Below are positions 1-40,812 of a DNA stretch of 40,812 bases, piece by piece; positions within the stretch are counted from its first letter, which is position 1, and each line of letters starts with the position of its first letter. Location of the stretch: IMG/VR virus record IMGVR_UViG_2541047766_000005; one strand, 5' to 3'. A program made the translations under genes and the position numbers. The notes below the pieces were generated by a model, which saw nothing but the letters and a program-made list of their open reading frames with translations, was not told the origin of the DNA and ran no database searches. This DNA is from a virus. Its lineage: Duplodnaviria; Heunggongvirae; Uroviricota; Caudoviricetes.

Positions 1-1284
1 TTACTTCTTCGCCTCTGCAACCACTTTGCTACCCACGCCGCGGTTATTGTATTCCCACATGCGGTTGTAGTTAGTGTCATTCAGATTGCGTTGTATTTCG
101 TCGTTATCATCAACGCTGCCGGTGTTACCCGCAAACGGACGATTAGAGATCACCGCATCAGCCCAGGGTTTGGCTGTGTTAAAACCTTCGTTGATGGCGC
201 TATCACGGATCACCACCTGACCGTTGGTATTGGCATCAACATCCAGCGAGCGACCCAGTTGCGCCACGCCATCACCGGAAGCATTGAAACGGCTGTTTAC
301 GGCGAGGAAACCGTAATAGATGTTAGACAGCGTAGCCGGTGCAAACACATACGCTTCTTGCTGAGTACGTGAGTTCACCACGCGGAATTCGGTGTTATCG
401 AACACCACTGCGCCGCGACCAGAAACGATATCCACATCCCCTTCAATGTAACTGTTGGTCACCAGAGTACGCGGCTGACGGTTGGTTTCCAGACGGTTTT
501 GCACACCACTGTTGGTGACAAAGAAGGTATTCTGACGACCGAGAATGTTGACGTTATTGATCTGCACTTTGTCACCATCAGTACGCAGTGCCACCGCCGG
601 ATGGTTACCCGCATCTACGCTATCGCCCAGCGTGTTTTCGATGGTCAGATTTTGCAGTTGCAGGCCATTGTTTTGTGACCAGAAGACCGCAGAGCAGAGA
701 ACACCGATACTGTCGCTGCGTTTGCTCTGGCAGCTATCGTACATATACCACGCTGGTTTACCTGGCATATATTTGCCGCGCGGGTTGACGTCGTGACGCC
801 AGTCGGCAGGGCTCATGCCCCCATCAAGGGAAAGCCCAATCTTCACATCAATCGGTTTTTCACCTGTACCGTACAGAGTAATTCCACCCGGAGCGGCAGG
901 GACATACACCGTTCCCTGATACTCACCAGGCATCACGGCAATATACTGGCGCTTGTTGGTGCGCTTGATAATTGCCGCATCTACCGCCGCCTGAATCGTG
1001 GTATGCGTTACACCTTGAGTACCCGCCGGGCCGACAACAAAGTCAGGTTGCGCAGGCAGGGTAATCGGGGAAGGATTCCACGCTGCCGCACCTGGTGTCA
1101 GGGATGCAAAATAGTGTTGAGCATCGAAATTCTGCGCTTCTTTTGCCGACAGAATCGGGCGAGAAGAGGTACCAGGCGCGGTTTGATCAGAAGGACGTTG
1201 ATCGGGCGGTGTTGAGCTACAGGCGGTCAGCGTCACGCCAAAAGCCAATGCCAGCGCCAGACGGGAAACTGAAAATGTGTTCAC
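1..1284 (-). CDS. ybhC: YbhC pectinesterase-family outer-membrane lipoprotein (host gene flanking lambda attB)
   Basis: 427-aa ORF with N-terminal lipoprotein signal (LTAC lipobox); sequence recognised as E. coli YbhC; sits immediately next to the attL core. Confidence 0.85.
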   Translation of the reverse strand: MNTFSVSRLALALAFGVTLTACSSTPPDQRPSDQTAPGTSSRPILSAKEAQNFDAQHYFASLTPGAAAWNPSPITLPAQPDFVVGPAGTQGVTHTTIQAAVDAAIIKRTNKRQYIAVMPGEYQGTVYVPAAPGGITLYGTGEKPIDVKIGLSLDGGMSPADWRHDVNPRGKYMPGKPAWYMYDSCQSKRSDSIGVLCSAVFWSQNNGLQLQNLTIENTLGDSVDAGNHPAVALRTDGDKVQINNVNILGRQNTFFVTNSGVQNRLETNRQPRTLVTNSYIEGDVDIVSGRGAVVFDNTEFRVVNSRTQQEAYVFAPATLSNIYYGFLAVNSRFNASGDGVAQLGRSLDVDANTNGQVVIRDSAINEGFNTAKPWADAVISNRPFAGNTGSVDDNDEIQRNLNDTNYNRMWEYNNRGVGSKVVAEAKK

Positions 1285-1315
1285 AGGTTGCTCCGGGCTA
1301 TGAAATAGAAAAATG

Positions 1316-1420
1316 AATCCGTTGAAGCCTGCTTTTTTATACTAAGTTGGCATTATAAAAAAGCATTGCTTATCAATTTGTTGCAACGAACAGGTCACTA
1401 TCAGTCAAAATAAAATCATT
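1316..1420. other. attL: Lambda attL (B arm, 15-bp core GCTTTTTTATACTAA at 1331-1345, P' arm with arm-type Int sites)
   Basis: Exact lambda core at 1331-1345; left flank TGAAGCCT matches the attB B arm; right flank GTTGGCATTATAAAAAAGCATTGCTTATCAATTTGTTGCAACGAACAGGTCACTATCAGTCAAAATAAAATCATT matches the lambda P' arm (arm sites at 1391-1412). Confidence 0.93.
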
Positions 1421-2489
1421 ATTTGATTTCAATTTTGTCCCACTCCCTGCCTCTGTCATCACGATACTGTGATGCCATGGTGTCCGACTTATGCCCGAGA
1501 AGATGTTGAGCAAACTTATCGCTTATCTGCTTCTCATAGAGTCTTGCAGACAAACTGCGCAACTCGTGAAAGGTAGGCGGATCCCCTTCGAAGGAAAGAC
1601 CTGATGCTTTTCGTGCGCGCATAAAATACCTTGATACTGTGCCGGATGAAAGCGGTTCACGACGAGTAGATGCAATTATGGTTTCTCCGCCAAGAATCTC
1701 TTTGCATTTATCAAGTGTTTCCTTCATTGATATCCCGAGAGCATCAACATGCAATGTTGTTGGGATGGCAATTTTTACGCCTGTTTTGCTTTGCTCGACA
1801 TAAAGATATCCATCTACGATATCAGACCACTTCATTTCGCATAAATCACCAACTCGCTGCCCGGTAACAACAGCCAGTTCCATTGCAAGTCTGAGCCAAC
1901 ATGGTGATGATTCTGCTGCTTGATAAATTTTCAGGTATTCGTCAGCCGTAAGTCTTGATCTCCTTACCTCTGATTTTGCTGCGCGAGTGGCAGCGACAGG
2001 GTTTGTTGTTATATGGCCTTCAGCTATTGCCTCTCGGAATGCATCGCTCAGTGTTGATCTGATTAACTTGGCTGACGCAGCCTTGCCCTCGTCTATGTAT
2101 CCATTGAGCATTGCCGCAATTTCTTTTGTGGTGATGTCTTCAAGTGGAGCATCAGGCAGACCCCTCCTTATTGCTTTAATTTTGCTCATGTAATTTATGA
2201 GTGTCTTCTGCTTGATTCCTCTGCTGGCGAGGATTTTTTCGTAGCGATCAAGCCATGAATGTAACGTAACAGAATTATCACTGTTGATTCTCGCTGTCAG
2301 AGGCTTGTGTTTGTGTCCTGAAAATAACTCAATGTTGGCCTGTATAGCTTCAGTGATTGCTATCCTCCTGTCTCTGCCTAATCCGAACTCTTTACCCGTC
2401 CTTGGGTCCCTGTAGCAGTAATATCCATTGTTTCTTAAATAAAGGTTAGGGGGTAAATCCCGGCGCTCATGACTTCGCCTTCTTCCCAT
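1419..2489 (-). CDS. int: Lambda-type tyrosine integrase
   Basis: 356-aa ORF whose translation matches lambda Int as I recall it (MGRRRSHERRDLPPNLYLRNNGYYCYRDPRTGKEF...); adjacent to attL P' arm. Confidence 0.95.
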   Translation of the reverse strand: MGRRRSHERRDLPPNLYLRNNGYYCYRDPRTGKEFGLGRDRRIAITEAIQANIELFSGHKHKPLTARINSDNSVTLHSWLDRYEKILASRGIKQKTLINYMSKIKAIRRGLPDAPLEDITTKEIAAMLNGYIDEGKAASAKLIRSTLSDAFREAIAEGHITTNPVAATRAAKSEVRRSRLTADEYLKIYQAAESSPCWLRLAMELAVVTGQRVGDLCEMKWSDIVDGYLYVEQSKTGVKIAIPTTLHVDALGISMKETLDKCKEILGGETIIASTRREPLSSGTVSRYFMRARKASGLSFEGDPPTFHELRSLSARLYEKQISDKFAQHLLGHKSDTMASQYRDDRGREWDKIEIK

Positions 2490-2685
2490 TTCTGATCCTC
2501 TTCAAAAGGCTACCTGTTACTGGTCGATTTAAGTCAACCTTTACCGCTGATTCGTGGAACAGATACTCTCTTCCATCCTTAACCGGAGGAGGGAATATCC
2601 TGCATTCGCGCACCCATCGACGAACTGTTTCAAGGCTTCTTGGGCGTCGCTGGCGAGCGTTCCACTCCTGAAGAGTCAAGTACAT
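2467..2685 (-). CDS. xis: Excisionase
   Basis: 72-aa ORF MYLTLQEWNARQRRPRSLETVRRWVRECRIFPPPVKDGREY... matching lambda Xis; overlaps int 5' end as in lambda. Confidence 0.93.
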   Translation of the reverse strand: MYLTLQEWNARQRRPRSLETVRRWVRECRIFPPPVKDGREYLFHESAVKVDLNRPVTGSLLKRIRNGKKAKS

Positions 2686-2949
2686 CGCAAAGTCTCCGCA
2701 ATTACACGCAAGAAAAAACCGCCATCAGGCGGTTTGGTGTTCTTTCAGTTCTTCAATTCGAATATTGGTTACGTCTGCATGTGCTATCTGCGCCCATATC
2801 ATCCAGTGGTTATAGCAGTCGTTGATGTCCTCGGCTTCGATAACTCTGTTGAATGGTTCTCCATTCCATTCACCTGTGACTCGGAAGTGCATTTATCATC
2901 TCCATAAAACAAAACCCGCCGTAGCGAGTTCAGATAAAAGAAATCCGCA

Positions 2950-3402
2950 TTAAGCGGCGTCGGTGAATTCAAATAAAAAACCGGCTTGCGCCGGCTCTCT
3001 CATCTTTCTGTCTACCCATGCTGATATCGATGGCGGATGCACCTTTTCAATAGCAGCGCGAAGTACAGCTGTACGTGCCAGTTTGTCGGTAATCTCAGGA
3101 AATCGCTTCTCTGTCTTCGGTACGTTAACAGCAACATTAGTAGAATCCGCACTGGCGAACGGATACATACCAAGAACTCTCACGTCGAGCATTCGAAGAC
3201 CATGAATTTTCACTTTCAAATTACGATTGATATAAATCTCAGTAAAAACTTCATCCATTCTCTGTTCCCACCATTTAGAGCGTATGTGCCTGTGTGGGCC
3301 GCAGCATCCAATCGCCACCCATTCAAATTTTCCAGAAAGGCGTAAAAGACGTTCAATTGATTCGTCGTATGCCAGACCGGAACCGCTTTTGATTTTAGCC
3401 AA
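2950..3402 (-). CDS. Hypothetical protein (possible C-terminal portion of the frameshifted gene, or spurious)
   Basis: 150-aa ORF overlapping 3216-3402 of the upstream ORF in a different frame; its 3' end contains a terminator-like hairpin (2981-2995) plus T-tract on the minus strand. Confidence 0.35.
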   Translation of the reverse strand: MAKIKSGSGLAYDESIERLLRLSGKFEWVAIGCCGPHRHIRSKWWEQRMDEVFTEIYINRNLKVKIHGLRMLDVRVLGMYPFASADSTNVAVNVPKTEKRFPEITDKLARTAVLRAAIEKVHPPSISAWVDRKMREPAQAGFLFEFTDAA

Positions 3403-3749
3403 TCAGGAACCAACTCAATCTGCTCGTCGTTTTCTGCCTCTGTCCCTTCGATAACGTCAGGTATAAGAAACCATTCAATTCTGCTGAACCACTTCCCAAC
3501 AAAGTCGTAGAATTTTGCTCGTCTCTTACTCCAGTCTACCGGAGTGCCTTTCTTTAATGCTTTCATCCAGTCGCTAAAAGCGCCGTTATCAAGGCGTATA
3601 TCACAAGGGAACATGGCAATCTTTTTCATCTGCTCTGGTCTGGCAAATGAAACAAAAGCCCCACTATCACGGTAAAGGGCTTTAATAAGCATATCTGTAG
3701 GGGCATGCTCATCACCCCATATTGGGCTGCCGTGAAAGTGGATGGTCAT
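3216..3749 (-). CDS. Hypothetical early-left protein (N-terminal portion of a possibly frameshifted gene)
   Basis: 177-aa ORF; its 3' third overlaps the next ORF (2950-3402) in another frame. Confidence 0.5.
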   Translation of the reverse strand: MTIHFHGSPIWGDEHAPTDMLIKALYRDSGAFVSFARPEQMKKIAMFPCDIRLDNGAFSDWMKALKKGTPVDWSKRRAKFYDFVGKWFSRIEWFLIPDVIEGTEAENDEQIELVPDWLKSKAVPVWHTTNQLNVFYAFLENLNGWRLDAAAHTGTYALNGGNREWMKFLLRFISIVI

Positions 3750-3807
3750 ATTATCCCCATATAAAAGAAATACCCGCGAGTGCGAGGATTGTTATGTAAT
3801 ATTTGGT

Positions 3808-4089
3808 TTAATCATCTATATGTTTTGTACAGAGAGGGCAAGTATCGTTTCCACCGTACTCGTGATAATAATTTTGCACGGTATCAGTCATTTCTCGCAC
3901 ATTGCAGAATGGGGATTTGTCTTCATTAGACTTATAAACCTTCATGGAATATTTGTATGCCGACTCTATATCTATACCTTCATCTACATAAACACCTTCG
4001 TGATGTCTGCATGGAGACAAGACACCGGATCTGCACAACATTGATAACGCCCAATCTTTTTGCTCAGACTCTAACTCATTGATACTCAT
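3808..4089 (-). CDS. Hypothetical Cys-containing small protein
   Basis: 93-aa ORF with AAGGAG Shine-Dalgarno 8 nt upstream of ATG; several Cys pairs (possible metal binding). Confidence 0.55.
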   Translation of the reverse strand: MSINELESEQKDWALSMLCRSGVLSPCRHHEGVYVDEGIDIESAYKYSMKVYKSNEDKSPFCNVREMTDTVQNYYHEYGGNDTCPLCTKHIDD

Positions 4090-4291
4090 TTATAAACTCC
4101 TTGCAATGTATGTCGTTTCAGCTAAACGGTATCAGCAATGTTTATGTAAAGAAACAGTAAGATAATACTCAACCCGATGTTTGAGTACGGTCATCATCTG
4201 ACACTACAGACTCTGGCATCGCTGTGAAGACGACGCGAAATTCAGCATTTTCACAAGTGTTATCTTTTACAAACCCGTATTCCTGCTCATA

Positions 4292-4843
4292 TCACTCTCC
4301 TTTGATGCGAATGCCTGTTGCAATGCTGTTTATGATGCTGTCAGTGCATGGGGTAGAAAGCTGGGCATCTCCAGCAATTTTCATGACCTCAACATCTGCA
4401 TATCGAATACCGAGGTGTATCAGACCGGCTATACCTGACTTAAGCCGAGCATTTTCCATAAACAGATCCTTTGCCCGCTGTTTTTCTGCCTCAAGCTCAA
4501 CGCGCAGCCTCCCAACCGTAAGCGCAATCTCCTCGTTCTCCTGGTCGCGGCGTTTGATGTACTGCTGGTTTCTTTCCCGTTCATCCAGTAGTGTCAGCAC
4601 GGTAGCCGGATTGGCTGCAGCGATGAATTCAGCATTGGCCTGCTGTTCCATTTGGAAATCTTCATCGAAACCGCTTTCAGGATGCGCTCCTTCAATTCTG
4701 CAAATGGGAATATATCCAGCAGCCTCGCGATGAATTAGCGCATCATCACCATCAAATCGGCCCTCTCCATATTCGAGCGACCACTCGCCACACGTTGCTT
4801 TTTCTGCCTTAGCACGCAGTGCCTGATAATCAATCTTGCTCAC
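4292..4843 (-). CDS. Ead/Ea22-like early protein
   Basis: 183-aa ORF; N-terminus (S)[19 protein letters not shown] resembles the Ead/Ea22 family of lambdoid phages; GTG start 6 nt after GGAGG. Confidence 0.6.
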   Translation of the reverse strand: MSKIDYQALRAKAEKATCGEWSLEYGEGRFDGDDALIHREAAGYIPICRIEGAHPESGFDEDFQMEQQANAEFIAAANPATVLTLLDERERNQQYIKRRDQENEEIALTVGRLRVELEAEKQRAKDLFMENARLKSGIAGLIHLGIRYADVEVMKIAGDAQLSTPCTDSIINSIATGIRIKGE

Positions 4844-5084
4844 TGGTTGCCTCCTGCTTTTCTGCCTTCAACACCATGCGAGAACCATCATCCAGATCCC
4901 ACGCGATCTCACCACCTTCAGCCATGACCAGTCGCCACACCAATTGAGCAGCCTCATTGGTAACATCACGACCTGGATCATTGCCAACGCGCATACGTCC
5001 ACCTTCAACATCGCGCATTTTTGCCAGCATGATAGTTTTTGATAGCGGTGAAAAACCAAGCTGTAGTCGTGCTGAATTACTCAC
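4830..5084 (-). CDS. Hypothetical early protein
   Basis: ORF in leftward operon; likely GTG start at 5084 preceded by AGGAGG (track ORF extends to ATG at 5105). Confidence 0.45.
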
Positions 5085-5244
5085 TGGTTGCCTCCTTTGC
5101 GCCACATCGCATTCAGATATTTGTTGTCATTAACAGAACCGAAACTCTTTCTCTTAAGCAATTCCTCTCTCGATGGCATTGGCTTTACGCGTTGGCGAAT
5201 AATCATTTCTGCCGGAAGAATGCCGGGATTGTATGAAAGTCCTC

Positions 5245-5526
5245 TCATGATTTACTCTCCATGAACTGGTCAACAGCCATGCTAAGTGATACACCTAAAG
5301 TCTCGATATGCTGCTGAATATCCTGTAGCGTCTGCGCCTGAGATAACAGGATTTCACGGTTGCATAACTCTTTGACCAGATGCTCAAACTTGCTGTAATG
5401 ACCGATACGACTTAGTGTTTCTTTCCCTGCATTCTCGCCTTCTTTGATAATTCCTCTTTCGCTAAGAATCAGATCGTGTTTGGTTCCGGTGATAACGTAT
5501 TTGCCGAGGTCGATGTTTAGCTTCAT
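5245..5526 (-). CDS. Hypothetical early protein
   Basis: 93-aa ORF co-oriented with the leftward early operon. Confidence 0.5.
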
Positions 5527-5542
5527 TGTTAATTATTCCATG

Positions 5543-5857
5543 TTAATTTATTCGTATGCCTGCTCTTTCTTCATCGAGTCTTTTTAGCTTGTATCGCATA
5601 GCCCTTACTGAATAAATTGAACGGCAGGTTGCAATTGCTATTTCTTCTGCGGAGAACTTACCGAAAAGTGATACTTCGGCTCTTGTCCAGCGTCTTCCAC
5701 GAAGTCGGCTAACAATGTCAGCACCAATCCTTGTTGCTTTCGCCATTACTGCTTTTTCAGTCCTTTCCAGTTTTTCAGCGATAACTTCAACTGGCATTGT
5801 CGCCGCCACTTCGCGCAAGAAATCGACTTCCCATTTCTCCCATGAAGTCTTTTTCAT
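5543..5857 (-). CDS. Hypothetical early protein with two internally similar helix-rich segments
   Basis: 104-aa ORF, co-oriented, 12 nt after preceding gene. Confidence 0.5.
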   Translation of the reverse strand: MKKTSWEKWEVDFLREVAATMPVEVIAEKLERTEKAVMAKATRIGADIVSRLRGRRWTRAEVSLFGKFSAEEIAIATCRSIYSVRAMRYKLKRLDEERAGIRIN

Positions 5858-5868
5858 AGTCGAGACCG

Positions 5869-6351
5869 TTATTTGATAAGAAGTGAAGGTTTCCCAACTT
5901 TGAGTTGAGCGCCGGGGATATTTATTCCTGCTTTTAGTTGGTGTTTGATTGCCAGTTTGTCGGCTTTAATTGTCGTTTCAAACTCAACGTATTCAGGAGG
6001 AAGGGCGCTTGAGTCGATGATTTCTACAGTTTCTGACGGTTTGCGGATTGTTACCTGGTGAATACCTGCTCGAATCTTTTTCTTGCCAACCATTTCAAGC
6101 GATGACGCTATATACGCCATAATGCTGTCAATCTTATTTTGAATTACTGCGGCTCGCTCATTTAGTGACTGTGCCTCTTCCTTGAGGCGTTCAGCATAAC
6201 CAGATTCATTTTTAATAATGGCAAGAAGTTGCTCTATTTTATCGGTAAATTCTCCTTCCATGCCTTCTATTGTGTCAGCAATCATCTCTGGCTCTAAATC
6301 TGAATCTATCAGCTTTGCGTATTCATTGGCAATTTCATACAGTTTGCTCAC
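5869..6351 (-). CDS. Siphovirus Gp157-like protein (commonly paired with RecT/Erf recombinases)
   Basis: 160-aa ORF directly downstream of recT; GTG start at 6351 6 nt after GGAGG (track ORF starts at TTG 6357); family assignment from memory. Confidence 0.55.
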   Translation of the reverse strand: MSKLYEIANEYAKLIDSDLEPEMIADTIEGMEGEFTDKIEQLLAIIKNESGYAERLKEEAQSLNERAAVIQNKIDSIMAYIASSLEMVGKKKIRAGIHQVTIRKPSETVEIIDSSALPPEYVEFETTIKADKLAIKHQLKAGINIPGAQLKVGKPSLLIK

Positions 6352-8702: not shown

Positions 8703-8906
8703 TCAAATAAGTGGTTTGCTGCCTAATTTCATTTTCTGGCGACCAACACAAGTCACACCCATTTCACTGCGTGGCTTGCTGTAGTAAAGATTGTGCCTGT
8801 CTTTTAACCACATCAGGCTCGGTGGTTCTCGTGTACCCCTACAGCGAGAAATCGGATAAACTCTATTCACCCCTACAGAGAGCAAAAGAGAAACGCCGAT
8901 GAACAA
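8703..8906 (-). pseudogene. Fossil of a lambda-type N gene (only the C-terminal ~28 codons are N-like)
   Basis: ORF ends ...YYSKPRSEMGVTCVGRQKMKLGSKPLI, closely resembling the lambda N C-terminus (...YSKPGERGITCSGRQKIKGKSIPLI); upstream part has no N similarity and overlaps the SieB-like start. Confidence 0.45.
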
Positions 8907-9480
8907 CTCATGGTGGCAGGAACTAATGCATTTTTTCCTGCAAGGAATGACACTTAAACAGTTGATTCATATGCTAATCATCCTGATCATATTGATTATT
9001 GTTATGCCGGTAAGCGTAAAAGAATGGATAAACCTGCATAATCCAGAAATCCTTCCTCATTATTGGATGTATTACATCCTGTTGTTCTGCGTTAGCTATG
9101 TGCTTAACGGTGTAGTTAATTCCGCTTATCACGCTGTGACTGAAAGAATTGAGGTATCCGCTGCTCAGAAGCGCAAATCCAAAGAAGAAAAATATGTGCA
9201 AGATTTGTTTGATTCGTTAACTCTTGGAGAAAGAGCGTATTTGGCATTCGCTGTAGCCGCTAATAACCAGCTACAAACGGAAAAGGGAGCTCATGAATCA
9301 ATTTCATTGCTCAAAAAAGGCCTCCTCGTTCGAAGGCCTCCTGCTGTTGGATATCCTGATACCGACCGTTTTATTATCCCGGAAAGCTATAGACATGAGT
9401 GCTACATTAGGTTTGCCGGGAAGGCAGACAGCCTTATGGATGAACTTATCGCTCAGGATAAGCATGGCAAAAACAAGTAA
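8899..9480 (+). CDS. sieB: SieB-like superinfection exclusion membrane protein
   Basis: 193-aa ORF on the opposite strand inside the early-left operon between ral and N; two N-terminal hydrophobic helices; N-terminus MNNSWW... recalled as SieB-like. Confidence 0.6.
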   Translation: MNNSWWQELMHFFLQGMTLKQLIHMLIILIILIIVMPVSVKEWINLHNPEILPHYWMYYILLFCVSYVLNGVVNSAYHAVTERIEVSAAQKRKSKEEKYVQDLFDSLTLGERAYLAFAVAANNQLQTEKGAHESISLLKKGLLVRRPPAVGYPDTDRFIIPESYRHECYIRFAGKADSLMDELIAQDKHGKNK

Positions 9481-10522: not shown

Positions 10523-11239
10523 TCAAACCAGCCTTAGTTTTGTCTCAATTGCAACGCCTATAATCTTGCAGTTTCCATTGATTGGCACGAGAGGCCATGC
10601 AGGGTTAAGTCCCTTGAGGTATTTATTTCCGCCGTCGATTATCAGCTTCTTGAATGTTGCTTCGTTAGAGTCAGAAAGTTTTGCTATGACCAAGCTGCCG
10701 TTGATCGCCTCCCTTCCGGTATCGAAAAGAACGAATGTTCCCTCTGGAATGCTTAACCCAACCGGTGCCGTCATTGAATCACCTTCCACTTTAAGCCAAA
10801 ACGCATTACCTTGAATATGCGCGTCAGACTCAAGCCAAACATCTATGTCTTTAATGGTGTATGGTTCGCATGCTTCACACCACGAGCCAGCCTGGATACT
10901 GCTTAACACCGGATACCTCTTTCCTGCTCTGTATTCCCCTGCATACCTTACGTTGGCATCGCTCTTAAGGCTTTCTGCCTGTTCTGCAACCTTGGCAGCA
11001 ATTGACTGGCTAAAATCAGCAATTGAGACTTGCAACAGTCGTGCAAAACCAGATGCAACCTCAACGTTTAGCGCGTTTCTGCCATTAAGATAATGCCCTA
11101 CCGCTCCTTGGGTGATACCCAGTTCATCAGCGATTGAGTATTGGGTTATTCCCAATTCTTTCTTTTTTGACTCATACAAAGCCTTAAGCCGCTTAGCGTC
11201 TTCGAGCTGTTCTGTCGTCAGTGATTTTTTATTTTCCAT
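10523..11239 (-). CDS. cI: CI-type prophage repressor (HTH N-terminal domain, LexA/S24-like C-terminal autocleavage domain)
   Basis: 238-aa ORF with lambda-CI-like architecture (QYSIADELGITQGAVGHYLNG helix-turn-helix; C-terminal VEGDSM...FKKL motif); divergent from cro across the operator region. Confidence 0.9.
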   Translation of the reverse strand: MENKKSLTTEQLEDAKRLKALYESKKKELGITQYSIADELGITQGAVGHYLNGRNALNVEVASGFARLLQVSIADFSQSIAAKVAEQAESLKSDANVRYAGEYRAGKRYPVLSSIQAGSWCEACEPYTIKDIDVWLESDAHIQGNAFWLKVEGDSMTAPVGLSIPEGTFVLFDTGREAINGSLVIAKLSDSNEATFKKLIIDGGNKYLKGLNPAWPLVPINGNCKIIGVAIETKLRLV

Positions 11240-24266: not shown

Positions 24267-26465
24267 ATGGCAGAAAAAAAGATGACTGACTGGCATCGCA
24301 AGGTGCTGTGCAACTTTGATAATGCCTGGTCAGCAACGCAGGATATGCGTGAGCAGATTATTGAGGCTCAACGTTTCGTCCGGGTGTCCGGCGCACAGTG
24401 GGAAGGCAGCACAAACGCTGGTTACTCATTTGATGAAGGCAGGTTTGAGCATTATCCGCGTTTTGAACTGAATAAGATTGCCCGTGAATGTGATCGCATC
24501 ATTGGCGAGTATCGACAGAATCGCATCAGCGTTAAATTCAGACCGAAGGACGATAAGGCATCGGAAGCGTTAGCCGAAAAGATGAACGGAAAATTCCGCG
24601 CTGACTATCAGGAAACATCCGGTGGCGAAGCGTGTGATAACGCATTTGATGATGCTGTAACGGGCGGATTCGGTTGTTTCCGCATGTGTGCCGATTACGA
24701 AGATGAAATGGATCCGAGTAACGAGCAACGCCGTATAAGCCTTCTCCCGGTTTACGACCCAGCGACATGCGTCTTCTTCGATCAGGACAGCAAGCAATAT
24801 GACCGCTCTGATGCTATGTGGGCTATGGAAATGTTCTCCATGACGCCTAAAGCGTTCGAGGCTGAATACCCTGATTCCATCGCGGCAAGTCTTTCTCGTG
24901 ATGACACTGGCACTCAATATGACTGGTCAACTCCTGATGCTATCTATGTTGGTCGCTACTACGAAGTTCGCATAGAGAAGGTGAAGCTCACAGCATGGCG
25001 TAACCCTGTTAGCGGAGAAACGGCAATCTATGATGAAGAGCAAATCAAAGATATTGTCGACGAGCTGACCGATGGTGCATTCGAACTGATTGGTGAGCGG
25101 ACAGTGAAGAAACGCCGAGTTTATTGCGGTCTTCTGTCTGGCGCTGAATGGCTGGAAGAACCGAAGCGTATTCCGGGCGAACATATTCCTCTCATCCCGG
25201 TATATGGGCGTCGTTCATTTGTTGATAATCAGGAGCGAATCGAAGGCCACGCAGCAAAAGCGATGGATGCACAGCGTCTTGAGAACCTGATGGTTTCCAT
25301 GATTGCAGATAACGCTACTCAGGCTGGCGGTGATGGCATTCCTGTAGTTGATGCTGACATGATTCCTGGTCCTCTCGCCACTCATTGGGCGGAGCGCAAC
25401 AAAAAGCGCCCGGCGTTCCTGCCGATGGTCAGTCTGAAAAACAAAAACGGAGATATTACTGCGCAGGCTCAGGTCAGCAGTTATACGCCTCCGACACAAA
25501 TGCCTCCAGCTCTTGCCGGGCTATTGCAGTACACCGGAACGGCTATTCAGCAAATTACAGGTGCGTCGCAGCTTGAGAACATGCCGAGCAACGTCGCCAC
25601 CGATACCGTTGATAGCATCTTTAACCGGATGGACACGCAGTCCTATATCTACATGGACAACATGGCTAAATCCATGCGCCGCGCTGGCGTCGTGTGGCTT
25701 TCTATGGCTCGTGAAGTCTATGGCAGTGATACGCCGATGCGTGTCGTTAATGAGGACGGCAGCGATGACGTGGCGCTGATGACTGGTGAAGTGGTTGACC
25801 GTCAGACAGGGCAGGTTATCGCGCTTAACGACCTTTCGCAGGGTAACTATGAAGTGACTGTCGATGTCGGTCAGTCGTTCGCTACTCGCCGTGATGCAAC
25901 GGTTAAGTCGTTACTTTCCATGCTGGCACTTATCCCGCCCGGAACGCCGAAACACGACCTTGTGTCGTCTCTTATTCTCGACAATATGGACGGCGAAGGG
26001 ATGGACGACCTGAAAGAATACAACCGCAATCAGTTGATTCTGTCTGGAGTTATCAAGCCGAGAACGCCAGAAGAACAGCAGATGGTTGAGCAGGCGAAAC
26101 AACAACAGGCCAGTCAGCCGGATCCGGCTATGATTGCAGCGCAAGGTCAGCTTCTTGCTGGTCAGGCTGAATTGCAGAAAGCGCAGAACGAACAAGCAGC
26201 CATTCAGGTTAAAGCATTCCAGGCACAGACGGATGCTCAGGTTGCTGCGGCAAATGTTGTGAAAATCCTCGCATCTGCCGATAGCCAGCAAAAATCTGAT
26301 ATCCGTGAGGCGCTGAAACTGCTCGGACAGTTCCAGCAACAGCAAGGAGATAATGCCCGTGCTGATGCAGAGCTTGTCCTGAAAAGTCAGGCGCAGGGCC
26401 ATGCGCAGCGCATGGACATCAGCAGCATCCTGCAAAAATCAACTCAGCAACAACCACAGCAGTAA
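24267..26465 (+). CDS. Portal protein (P22 gp1-like, with long C-terminal helical barrel)
   Basis: 732-aa ORF; conserved blocks shared with P22 portal (GEHIPLIPVYG, Q-rich C-terminus ending RMDISSILQ). Confidence 0.9.
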   Translation: MAEKKMTDWHRKVLCNFDNAWSATQDMREQIIEAQRFVRVSGAQWEGSTNAGYSFDEGRFEHYPRFELNKIARECDRIIGEYRQNRISVKFRPKDDKASEALAEKMNGKFRADYQETSGGEACDNAFDDAVTGGFGCFRMCADYEDEMDPSNEQRRISLLPVYDPATCVFFDQDSKQYDRSDAMWAMEMFSMTPKAFEAEYPDSIAASLSRDDTGTQYDWSTPDAIYVGRYYEVRIEKVKLTAWRNPVSGETAIYDEEQIKDIVDELTDGAFELIGERTVKKRRVYCGLLSGAEWLEEPKRIPGEHIPLIPVYGRRSFVDNQERIEGHAAKAMDAQRLENLMVSMIADNATQAGGDGIPVVDADMIPGPLATHWAERNKKRPAFLPMVSLKNKNGDITAQAQVSSYTPPTQMPPALAGLLQYTGTAIQQITGASQLENMPSNVATDTVDSIFNRMDTQSYIYMDNMAKSMRRAGVVWLSMAREVYGSDTPMRVVNEDGSDDVALMTGEVVDRQTGQVIALNDLSQGNYEVTVDVGQSFATRRDATVKSLLSMLALIPPGTPKHDLVSSLILDNMDGEGMDDLKEYNRNQLILSGVIKPRTPEEQQMVEQAKQQQASQPDPAMIAAQGQLLAGQAELQKAQNEQAAIQVKAFQAQTDAQVAAANVVKILASADSQQKSDIREALKLLGQFQQQQGDNARADAELVLKSQAQGHAQRMDISSILQKSTQQQPQQ

Positions 26466-36275: not shown

Positions 36276-38039
36276 ATGACAGACATTACAGCCAATGTTG
36301 TGGTAAGCATGCCTTCGCAACTCTTCACTATGGCGCGTTCTTTTAAAGCCGTTGCCAATGGCAAAATTTATATCGGTAAAATTGACACTGACCCGGTAAA
36401 TCCTGAAAACCAGATTCAGGTTTATGTAGAGAACGAAGACGGCTCTCACGTTCCTGTTTCGCAACCAATCATCATTAACGCTGCTGGTTATCCGGTATAT
36501 AACGGACAGATTGCAAAGTTCGTTACCGTACAGGGACATTCAATGGCTGTGTATGACGCATATGGCACACAGCAGTTCTACTATCCAAACATTCTCAAGT
36601 ATGACCCGGACCAGTTCCGGCAGGAGCTAGAGGGAGAGTTTGCAAGCGGGGCATTCCCTGAAACAGTAAAGTATAAGTATGGATTACCATCTGTTGTTGA
36701 TGGTGCTGTCTTCAGGAATGTACAAGAAAAGCTGGATGATTTTGTATTTTTGGAAGACTTTGGTGGCAAAGATGATTCTGGAACAACAGATAATAGCATA
36801 GCCTTTCAGAAGGCATTCGCTTCAGGCGCAAGAAAAATTCACTTGAAAGGTTCTGGCATATATGGAATGAAGACCAGAGACATTGAGCTTCCAGCAAAAT
36901 ATGAAATTATTGGTAACGCAAAAAATCCAGAGATTAAATATCTAGGTTCTGATTCAACCTTCACTATGTTTACCCTTACAGGGTCTGGCCCGGCTGCTAG
37001 TCAGTGGAAACAGGGTGGCATATTCCGAGATGTAGTCATATCATCCGACGTGCTGATTAACTGGATTGTTTGTCGTCATGTCCAGAACTTAGAGTTTGAT
37101 CGGGTGTTTTTCTATAACGCACAAACTACTATGAACAACTACCATTACGTTAACTTCTTCCGGTGCGAACGTTGGGGTAGTCCATTCTTGGGGCGTGCGG
37201 ATTTAAATACTGTGGAGTTCATCAGCGAATCACCTAAGTTTCTTATGTGTTTCAGTTCTAACTCTCCGATTGACGTATGGGATACCGCCGATTTATTTAT
37301 TAGTGAATGCTCAATGTTTGCTGGAGATTTTGCGGTAAGAACACGCACAACACTTGGTGAGATGGGTGGAACAGACCAATTCGCGGGTTATCCGGTTATA
37401 ATTTCAAATAGCGTTTTTGATGCCATCAACGGTACTGCTTTTGATATGGAGAGTCTGGCTTACGCTACCATCAGCGGTAACATTATTAGTGCAGGGAGGA
37501 TAAACAATAGTCGTGGAATTAATATTAAAGGGGCAAGAAATCTAACATTTACGGGAAACACTATCACTTACTGTGGTGAGTTCGGCATGGTATTGGAAAA
37601 TGCTGAACAATGTTCTTTGTCTAATAATATATTCAACGGAAATAAGACTGGTGGGCTATCGTTGGTAAACTGTAAAGAAATATCTGTTATTGGCGGCTCT
37701 ATGGGTACGTCTTATATCAGAGGTGGATACTACGTGCAACCACTTGGGATCACAGACCCCGCCGATAACTGTAACGGCATAACCATCAATGGCGTTTCTT
37801 TCGATAGCGATATGACGACCAAGATTTACCTTAATACATCGGAAGAGCGCAAAAATCGTATTATAGCTTGTCTAGGTGTTAATGATACTCAGACGACTTA
37901 TCAAAACCGTGGATCTACTGCGCAGCGCCCTACAGCACCAGTCAGTGGGCAGATGTATTATGATACAACGCTAGGTCTTCCAATATGGTATAACACAGTA
38001 TCATCTGAATGGAAGAGGGCGGATGGTACAAGTGTATGA
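36276..38039 (+). CDS. Tailspike protein (P22 gp9-like head-binding domain plus distinct receptor-binding domain)
   Basis: 587-aa ORF; first ~110 aa match the P22 tailspike head-binding domain ([11 protein letters not shown]...YDPDQ); the rest diverges, consistent with a different O-antigen specificity. Confidence 0.9.
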
Positions 38040-39538: not shown

Positions 39539-40453
39539 TTACTTATCCTTTAGAATGTATCTTGGTCGCTGCTTAACTTCAACATAAATTCTTCCTATAT
39601 ACTCTCCAAGAACTCCTATGCCTATTAACTGAACTCCACCAAGAAACAATATTGATACAATGATAGAAGGGTAACCTGGAACACTATTTCCAAACATCAA
39701 TTTATCAGCAATCATCCATGCTCCATAAAGGAATGATAAGGTTGCCACAAACAGGCCTATATAAGTCCACATGCGCAAAGGGAAAGTAGAAAAGCTAGTG
39801 ATCCCTTCCAGCGCCAAGTTCCATAGCTTCCATCCATTGAACTTTGTGCTTCCTGCAACGCGTTCTGCTCGCGCATATTCTACGACATCGGTTCGACCAC
39901 CAACCCAGCTCAGCACACCCTTCATAAACAGGTTTCGTTCTGGCATGAGCTTAATGTTTTCTACTACTTCGCGAGACATGAGCCGGAAGTCGCCAACATT
40001 CTCTTCTATCTGAGGGTTGCTGATTTTGTTATGAAGTTTATAGAACCACTCAGCAGATTTACGCTTCAGCCTGCTGTCAGTGGAGCGGTCAGAGCGTTTA
40101 GCCAGAACCATATCTGCACCGGCCTGCCATTTCTCTATCAAGTGAGGAATAACTTCTATAGGGTCTTGCAGATCAACGTCAATCGGGATAATTGCCTCCC
40201 CGGTAGCATGGTCCAGACCTGCGAACAGGGCAGGTTCTTTGCCGAAGTTACGTGTGAACGACAGCGAAACCACAAGCGGGTCGGCAACAGCAAGCTCGTT
40301 GATAATTGATTCTGTAGCGTCTTTGCTGCCATCGTTTATGAAGACTATCTCGACTTCATGCTGCTGAAGCCCTTCAAATTCGCGCACGGTTTTATAAAAA
40401 ATAGGTATCGTGGCCTCTTCGTTAAAGACCGGAACGACTAAAGAAATTTTCAT
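39539..40453 (-). CDS. gtrB: Bactoprenol glucosyltransferase GtrB (GT2 family)
   Basis: 304-aa ORF with GT2 N-terminal domain (VVPVFNEE...DGSKD) and two C-terminal transmembrane helices. Confidence 0.9.
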
Positions 40454-40812
40454 TTCGCATCCCTAAAGACAATGAACTTTGAATAGACGAAACCGCACAC
40501 CAGGCTGATGGCGGAGAAGGTGACAAGAGTTATCATCGGAGGAAGTGCGCATCTATCAGCAGCCCATCCAACAGTAGCACTCAGTGTTCCCATGAACCCG
40601 ACATATAACATGTAGCGCATCGTTGTAGTTGATGCTTTGAATGTGAATTTTGCATTCGCGAAGAAGCTAAAACTCACAGCCACAACGAAACCTGCGAAGT
40701 TTGCCAGAGCCTGATTGGTATGCGCGGCATAGATACATACACCAAAAACCACCCAGTGTATAAGTGTGTTCAGCACACCAATCGAGGTGTACCTTGCAAA
40801 TATATTTAACAT
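40450..40812 (-). CDS. gtrA: GtrA flippase (bactoprenol-glucose translocase)
   Basis: 120-aa four-helix membrane ORF matching GtrA of serotype-converting phages; start codon at the last three bases of the window. Confidence 0.88.

Follow-up and report, generated by a model that had tools for sequence, protein, structure and literature searches.

Two overlapping open reading frames as the probable halves of a DpdA-like prophage gene broken by a single-nucleotide deletion

The window analysed here is the whole 40,812-nucleotide (nt) stretch of IMG/VR virus record IMGVR_UViG_2541047766_000005 (Caudoviricetes), and all coordinates count from its first letter. On its minus strand, between a homologue of ea8.5 and the orf55-xis-int genes of a prophage, lie two overlapping open reading frames (ORFs), the probable remains of a DpdA-like gene: one of 177 amino acids (aa; 3216-3749) and one of 150 aa that begins with TTG (2950-3402). 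A sequence-only reading had pointed to both ORFs and proposed that they derive from one gene of about 266 aa broken by an indel. Both are found as it described, and their overlap, which it put at about 190 nt, measures 187 nt (3216-3402). They are in different frames, that of the 150-aa ORF being -1 relative to that of the 177-aa ORF, and computation of the frames over the whole span (3749 to 2950, minus strand) gives 800 nt, i.e., one short of a multiple of three.

Megablast matches the whole region to phage HK106 at 98% identity, and there it holds a single 801-nt coding sequence (CDS), gp29; intact alleles, in HK106 as well as in Escherichia coli (E. coli) prophages, are 801 nt long and encode 266 aa. 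Aligned at the nucleotide level with HK106 and with two intact E. coli alleles, the window differs in length by nothing more than a 1-nt deletion, the indel that had been supposed. Alignment with the intact alleles and within the family places it at 3367-3368 (minus strand), where one C of a CC dinucleotide, outside any homopolymer run, is gone from codon Thr128; where intact alleles have CATACCGACGA, the window has CATACGACGA. Restoring the missing C at 3367 yields a 266-aa ORF. The deletion falls within the conserved motif VPVWH(T/S)DES, directly after the invariant H127. In the 5' fragment, residues 1-128 are authentic and include the invariant D54, D98 and H127, while the last 49 are out of frame; in the 3' fragment, the first 12 residues are out of frame and the other 138 correspond to residues 129-266 of the intact protein, with the invariant H183, R186 and D202-S203. 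No uninterrupted frame therefore carries all the catalytic motifs, D54, D98 and H127 being on one ORF and H183 and D202 on the other.

Profile searches identify the protein that was interrupted. Both ORFs match consecutive segments of PHROG 887 (phrog_887, 'queuine tRNA-ribosyltransferase'), the 177-aa ORF at profile positions 10-142 (E 5.7e-50) and the 150-aa ORF at positions 135-318 (E 8.6e-46), and are therefore consecutive parts of one protein. Alignment with homologues, the check that the sequence-only reading had proposed, agrees: 2229 database homologues, typically of 245-270 aa, cover both halves as single ORFs, and none stops at the end of the 177-aa ORF except copies of the same allele, whose truncated product forms a 32-member cluster (P0079) in metagenome assemblies. 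No homologue has anything that corresponds to the final 49 residues of the 177-aa ORF. The outcome that would have refuted the one-gene reading, homologues that match one ORF alone, thus did not occur. When a profile of 38 diverse homologues was compared by hhalign with the validated DpdA of phage 9g, the two aligned over 150 columns with a probability of 94.7% (E 5.9e-8) and with their motifs in register (family/9g DpdA: LDNGAFS/LDSGAFS, VPVWH/LPCFH, KIHGL/KVHGF, and SADST/SCDSS). The AlphaFold model of the intact protein is an alpha/beta barrel (predicted local distance difference test, pLDDT, 88; predicted template modelling score, pTM, 0.86), i.e., it has the TIM-barrel fold of TGT-like enzymes. 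D54, D98, and D202 never vary across the 38 homologues, which matches what has been described for DpdA and TGT, where three aspartates are invariant. In the alignment with 9g DpdA, D54 falls on the LDSGAF motif and D202 on the CDS motif, and the order of the motifs suggests that the three residues are the equivalents of Asp95, Asp130, and Asp256 of Salmonella DpdA. With the deletion where it is, the presumed acid/base and base-recognition residues sit on one fragment and D202, the presumed nucleophile, on the other. The window copy is a pseudogene of the phage DpdA family and not a functional member of it.

The models of Pfam (TGT model PF01702) and those of NCBIfam for TGT and DpdA match neither the two ORFs, nor the restored protein, nor the 38 homologues. 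This is expected for the phage groups, because their DpdAs were recognised only with PSI-BLAST and HHpred (Hutinet et al., 2019; PMC6884629). Sequence searches of the PDB returned nothing meaningful, whether the query was the single protein or the family profile. The CxCxxC...H zinc motif of TGT is present in neither this protein nor 9g DpdA, and the zinc site was dropped as a sign of membership since a validated phage DpdA also does without CxCxxC. As in the 'DpdA-only' group of phages, tblastn detected neither FolE nor QueD, QueE or QueC in the window. E. coli itself makes preQ0, and, the window being devoid of preQ0 synthesis genes, the intact enzyme would depend on this host supply.

The broken allele is not confined to the window. 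Of 5426 complete E. coli genomes, 79 contain the gene region; a 60-nt probe with the deletion at its centre matches 11 of these at 60/60 positions, and the other 68 with a gap consistent with the extra base. Different projects, in different countries, produced these 11 genomes. In one genome, FDAARGOS_1288, 6.8 kb are identical to the window, and its RefSeq annotation gives two hypothetical proteins at this place, WP_001544360 and WP_001544359. We conclude that the deletion is inherited, and that it is neither an assembly error nor part of a recoding signal. The inactivation is recent, since the allele differs from the closest intact one by only about three substitutions in the alignment.

Four other explanations of the two ORFs were weighed against this evidence. 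The first is a sequencing or assembly error, with the real gene intact and the missing C an artefact. Single-base indels are the commonest assembly error, and the RefSeq annotation simply shows two CDS; this is nonetheless very unlikely given that 11 complete genomes, from different projects, contain the same 60-nt stretch with the deletion, that a CC dinucleotide is no homopolymer run, and that the 177-aa product recurs as a metagenome cluster. Programmed -1 ribosomal frameshifting, or another form of recoding, could instead join the two ORFs into a full-length enzyme: the downstream frame is indeed -1 to the upstream one, the native sequence would come back if the shift took place exactly at ACG|G, and the overlap contains one X_XXY_YYZ heptamer, A_AAT_TTG (3324-3330, minus strand). 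There is, however, no slippery sequence at the deletion. The heptamer, the only one of its kind in the overlap, lies 37 nt 3' of it, is not conserved in HK106 (which has AAATGTG), and a frame change there would swap 13 residues, including the nearly invariant E130, S131, and R134 and the invariant L138; we judge it a chance match because of its absence from HK106 and of the conserved residues that such a shift would replace. Homopolymers that would fit transcriptional slippage are lacking as well, and the gene is a single uninterrupted ORF in 68 of the 79 genomes and in about 2200 homologues. All this makes recoding highly improbable. Phase variation was also considered and rejected, as a CC dinucleotide is no repeat tract.

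Another possibility, put forward in the sequence-only reading, is that the true gene is the 177-aa ORF alone, with an intrinsic terminator after it, and that the 150-aa ORF is spurious. A strong terminator-like hairpin does lie downstream, at 2975-3000. It is found, however, 216 nt beyond the stop codon of the 177-aa ORF, where the conserved frame of the intact gene is still open; the 150-aa frame is the one that matches the C-terminal half of the family, and the out-of-frame end of the 177-aa ORF is shared only by the P0079 copies. The proposal of two genuine genes is hardly credible on these grounds. Finally, both fragments could be translated, with the TTG at 3402 or the ATG chosen by PGAP as the start of the second, and assemble into a TIM-barrel enzyme that is active although split; alternatively, the N-terminal fragment could have taken on a new role. 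Split TIM barrels can sometimes reassemble, and 11 genomes still have the allele, with few mutations added. Yet a start at PGAP's ATG would drop residues 129-164, the recency of the mutation explains the persistence equally well, and other truncated or N-terminally shortened copies (P0020, H61) suggest that the gene is dispensable in lysogens; such a split enzyme is thus very improbable too.

The reading that we favour, with a probability of about 90%, is that the two ORFs are the halves of one 266-codon DpdA-like prophage gene, broken by the loss of a single C. In this reading the gene is of the accessory ('moron') type and sits in a P22-like/lambdoid prophage as an insertion between ea8.5 and orf55-xis-int. 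Its intact product is a 266-aa TIM-barrel homologue of DpdA, the member of the TGT superfamily by which guanine in DNA is replaced with a 7-deazaguanine, for example preQ0. The gene belongs to the 'singleton' group, i.e., phages with DpdA and without preQ0 synthesis genes, and the intact enzyme would be expected to insert host-derived 7-deazaguanine into phage DNA. In this prophage lineage, the loss of the C at 3367 would make ribosomes leave the frame after Thr128 and stop after 49 wrong residues. The truncated product would keep the D54, D98, and H127 motifs and be without H183 and without D202, the presumed nucleophile, whose ADS motif is aligned with the CDS of 9g DpdA; such a product is presumably inactive, and the window allele therefore probably a recent loss-of-function pseudogene.

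Other shortened versions of the gene were seen in E. coli LH10-b-1 (record L010) and in clusters P0020 and P0010; they comprise a 247-aa CDS without the N-terminus, a cluster of 154-aa C-terminal ORFs with 67 members, and a chimeric N-terminus. These copies suggest that the gene decays repeatedly in lysogens, by independent decay or by recombination in other prophages.

The last codons of the gene hold the hairpin mentioned above. A terminator scan places it, with its U6 tract, at 2975-3000 on the minus strand, over codons 250-258 (REPAQAGFL) and 23 nt before the intact stop; it has an 11-pair stem with an A/U extension and a GCAA loop, its core GCCGGC-GCAA-GCCGG being at 2995-2981 and the T6 at 2980-2975. 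It had been noticed by the sequence-only reading, whose coordinates (2971-2997) were off by a few bases, and is real: its minimum free energy is -17.7 kcal/mol, compared with -7.9 +/- 2.2 for shuffled sequences (z = -4.5), and none of the 200 shuffles folds as stably. The GC-rich stem-loop and the U-run of an intrinsic terminator are thus both there, whereas a location after the stop codon is not. The C-terminal tail itself is poorly conserved in distant homologues, and residues 255-266 have pLDDT<50 in the AlphaFold2 model. Homologues at 86%, 80%, and 75% identity have the stem unaltered, while the loop differs at two third-codon positions (GCAA vs TCAG) and the flanking codons diverge. In a homologue at 72% identity the tail is in frame and the stem lost, and in one at 45% identity the last codons carry another hairpin, CCCGCTACGGCGGG-U6, at the corresponding place. 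In P0006, a fusion with Dam, the CCGGC/GCCGG-T6 hairpin falls in the middle of the ORF.

From this pattern of conservation, we lean slightly towards seeing the hairpin and its U6 as an intrinsic terminator that belongs to the cassette and through which the ORF reads. Ribosomes that start at the normal ATG of the frameshifted allele stop at 3216 and do not translate the hairpin; it is then free, and could raise termination of non-antiterminated leftward transcripts ahead of orf55-xis-int. A bolder proposal is that the hairpin serves as a translation-sensitive attenuator, melted by reading ribosomes so as to allow read-through to the downstream genes (orf55-xis-int here, Dam or C5 methylase elsewhere), with untranslated transcripts being terminated. 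It draws on the stem being kept in homologues from 99% down to 75% identity, mid-ORF in the Dam fusion as well, and on the different hairpin of the 45% homologue. This is unlikely; were it true, the frameshift would at once silence the enzyme and lower non-antiterminated leftward transcription into xis/int.

The gene and its hairpin are flanked by two further hairpins that belong to the phage backbone. In lambda (L005:1586-1675) and in HK022, the tL4 hairpin CCTCGCAxTCGCGGGG-ATTTxTTTTA is followed at once by a second hairpin, CTCGCTACGGCGGG-TTTTGTTTT. In the window, the two are about 827 bp apart (3760 to 2934) and the DpdA-like gene stands between them. The upstream one, CCTCGCACTCGCGGG with TATTTCTTTTAT (3761-3786, minus strand), is the equivalent of the 'tL4 terminator' of the HK022 record X51962.1 and lies between ea8.5 and the DpdA-like gene; the second, GAACTCGC-TACG-GCGGGTTT followed by TGTTTT (2912-2931, minus strand), is found just downstream of the gene. 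Alignment with lambda shows that the edges of the insertion are a 16-17-nt direct repeat, GCGG(GT)ATTTCTTTTAT, with its left copy, GCGGGTATTTCTTTTAT, at 3761-3777 and its right copy, TGCGGATTTCTTTTAT, at 2934-2949, both on the minus strand. The DpdA-like gene accordingly has the appearance of a discrete inserted cassette, and the flanking repeat suggests gain or loss through recombination at the terminator T-tract. In all, each small gene in the ~1.1 kb from ea8.5 to xis is followed by a leftward terminator-like hairpin, four in total (2716-2735, 2912-2931, 2975-3000, and 3773-3786, minus strand); that at 2716-2735 scores on both strands. The region 1300-6000 has 10 terminator-like sites, compared with 3.8 +/- 1.9 expected, and a scan of the whole window at Rfam gathering thresholds found no family.

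The prophage as a whole is a mosaic, with lambda-type int, xis, orf55, and ea8.5 and a P22-like remainder. It is inserted beside ybhC (1-1284, minus strand), at the lambda attB site, and continues leftward-oriented with a lambda-type int (1419-2489), xis (2467-2685), and a 55-aa orf55/lambdap35-like gene (2725-2892). Beyond the DpdA-like gene come the ea8.5 homologue (3808-4089, leftward; Pfam Lambda_ea8_5, E 1e-48) and an Ead/Ea22-like ORF (4292-4843, minus strand; Pfam E 9e-33). At the latter, PGAP calls an overlapping CDS an incomplete pseudogene with a missing C-terminus in the identical RefSeq genome, and this ORF may be a second decayed accessory gene of the early-left region. Further genes are SieB (8899-9480), a CI-like S24 repressor (10523-11239), a P22-type portal (24267-26465), a tailspike with the P22 head-binding domain (36276-38039), and the GtrB/GtrA O-antigen modification genes (39539-40812).

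Homologues at 80% and 75% identity (P0004 and P0006) are preceded, with a 4-nt overlap, by a gene of the Vut_1/YhhQ family (PF02592; L012:1148-1504 and L013:1040-1504), and a VUT neighbour is also found in the records of phages PEAT2, Tbat1_6, and Phleasolo. The Vut_1/YhhQ gene, as a putative 7-deazaguanine precursor transporter, and the DpdA-like gene would form an operon; no gene of the transporter type was found in the window. In P0006 (L013:1501-2883, 460 aa), the DpdA-like domain is fused in frame to a Dam domain (PF05869), and the homologue at 45% identity (L007:3001-5272) overlaps the gene of a 487-aa C5 DNA methylase. The context in relatives, i.e., transporter, Dam fusion, and C5 methylase, agrees with a role in 7-deazaguanine or DNA modification.

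The gene family is already catalogued, a pseudogene of it is ordinary, and current understanding is not challenged. For annotation, the value of the finding is that WP_001544360 and WP_001544359 are halves of one DpdA-like pseudogene, which should be merged and flagged as such. In addition, intact and broken alleles (68 and 11 complete genomes, respectively) form a natural pair in a near-identical sequence context, which could be used to test whether the gamma-proteobacterial singleton DpdA group places 7-deazaguanine in temperate-phage DNA and whether this protects against restriction.

Literature searches, covering main texts, found no paper that joins DpdA with lambdoid phages or with HK106, the latter being named only in supplementary tables. 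Among known systems, the bacterial DpdA of the Dpd restriction-modification system of Salmonella Montevideo (PDB 7ui4) has 413 aa and is 15% identical; it contains a structural Zn site and is dependent on the DpdB ATPase (PMC10164549), in contrast to the present gene, for which neither a Zn motif nor a DpdB partner was seen. The DpdA of Enterobacteria phage 9g (DpdA1), whose expression in E. coli puts preQ0 into DNA (PMC6884629), is homologous at the profile level and shares the motifs LDxGAFS, (W/F)H, K(I/V)HG, and (A/C)DS, but has 317 aa as compared with 266 aa here and is only ~25% identical over 150 columns. Closer is the DpdA of Salmonella phage 7-11, 57.8% identical in aa to the restored protein over 89% of its length; this phage is likewise DpdA-only, relies on a host precursor, and is of the singleton group, and its virion DNA contains about 50 dADG per 10^6 nt (PMC6884629), a modification that its DpdA may make. 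It differs from the present case in that it is a virulent-type phage of about 90 kb with an intact gene. Closest among these systems is HK106 gp29 (YP_007151699), listed among the DpdA-only phages in the 'singleton DpdA' group 3 of the supplementary data of Hutinet et al. (2019, Nat Commun; PMC6884629), where gamma-proteobacterial singleton DpdAs form a cluster of their own whose function is said to need study. Unlike the window allele, gp29 is intact, and its upstream neighbours are a DUF4752 gene and a small ORF instead of ea8.5; it is nonetheless 98% identical in nucleotide sequence over the whole gene, stands likewise upstream of orf55-xis-int, and has the same 266-codon frame that the window recovers once the missing C is restored.
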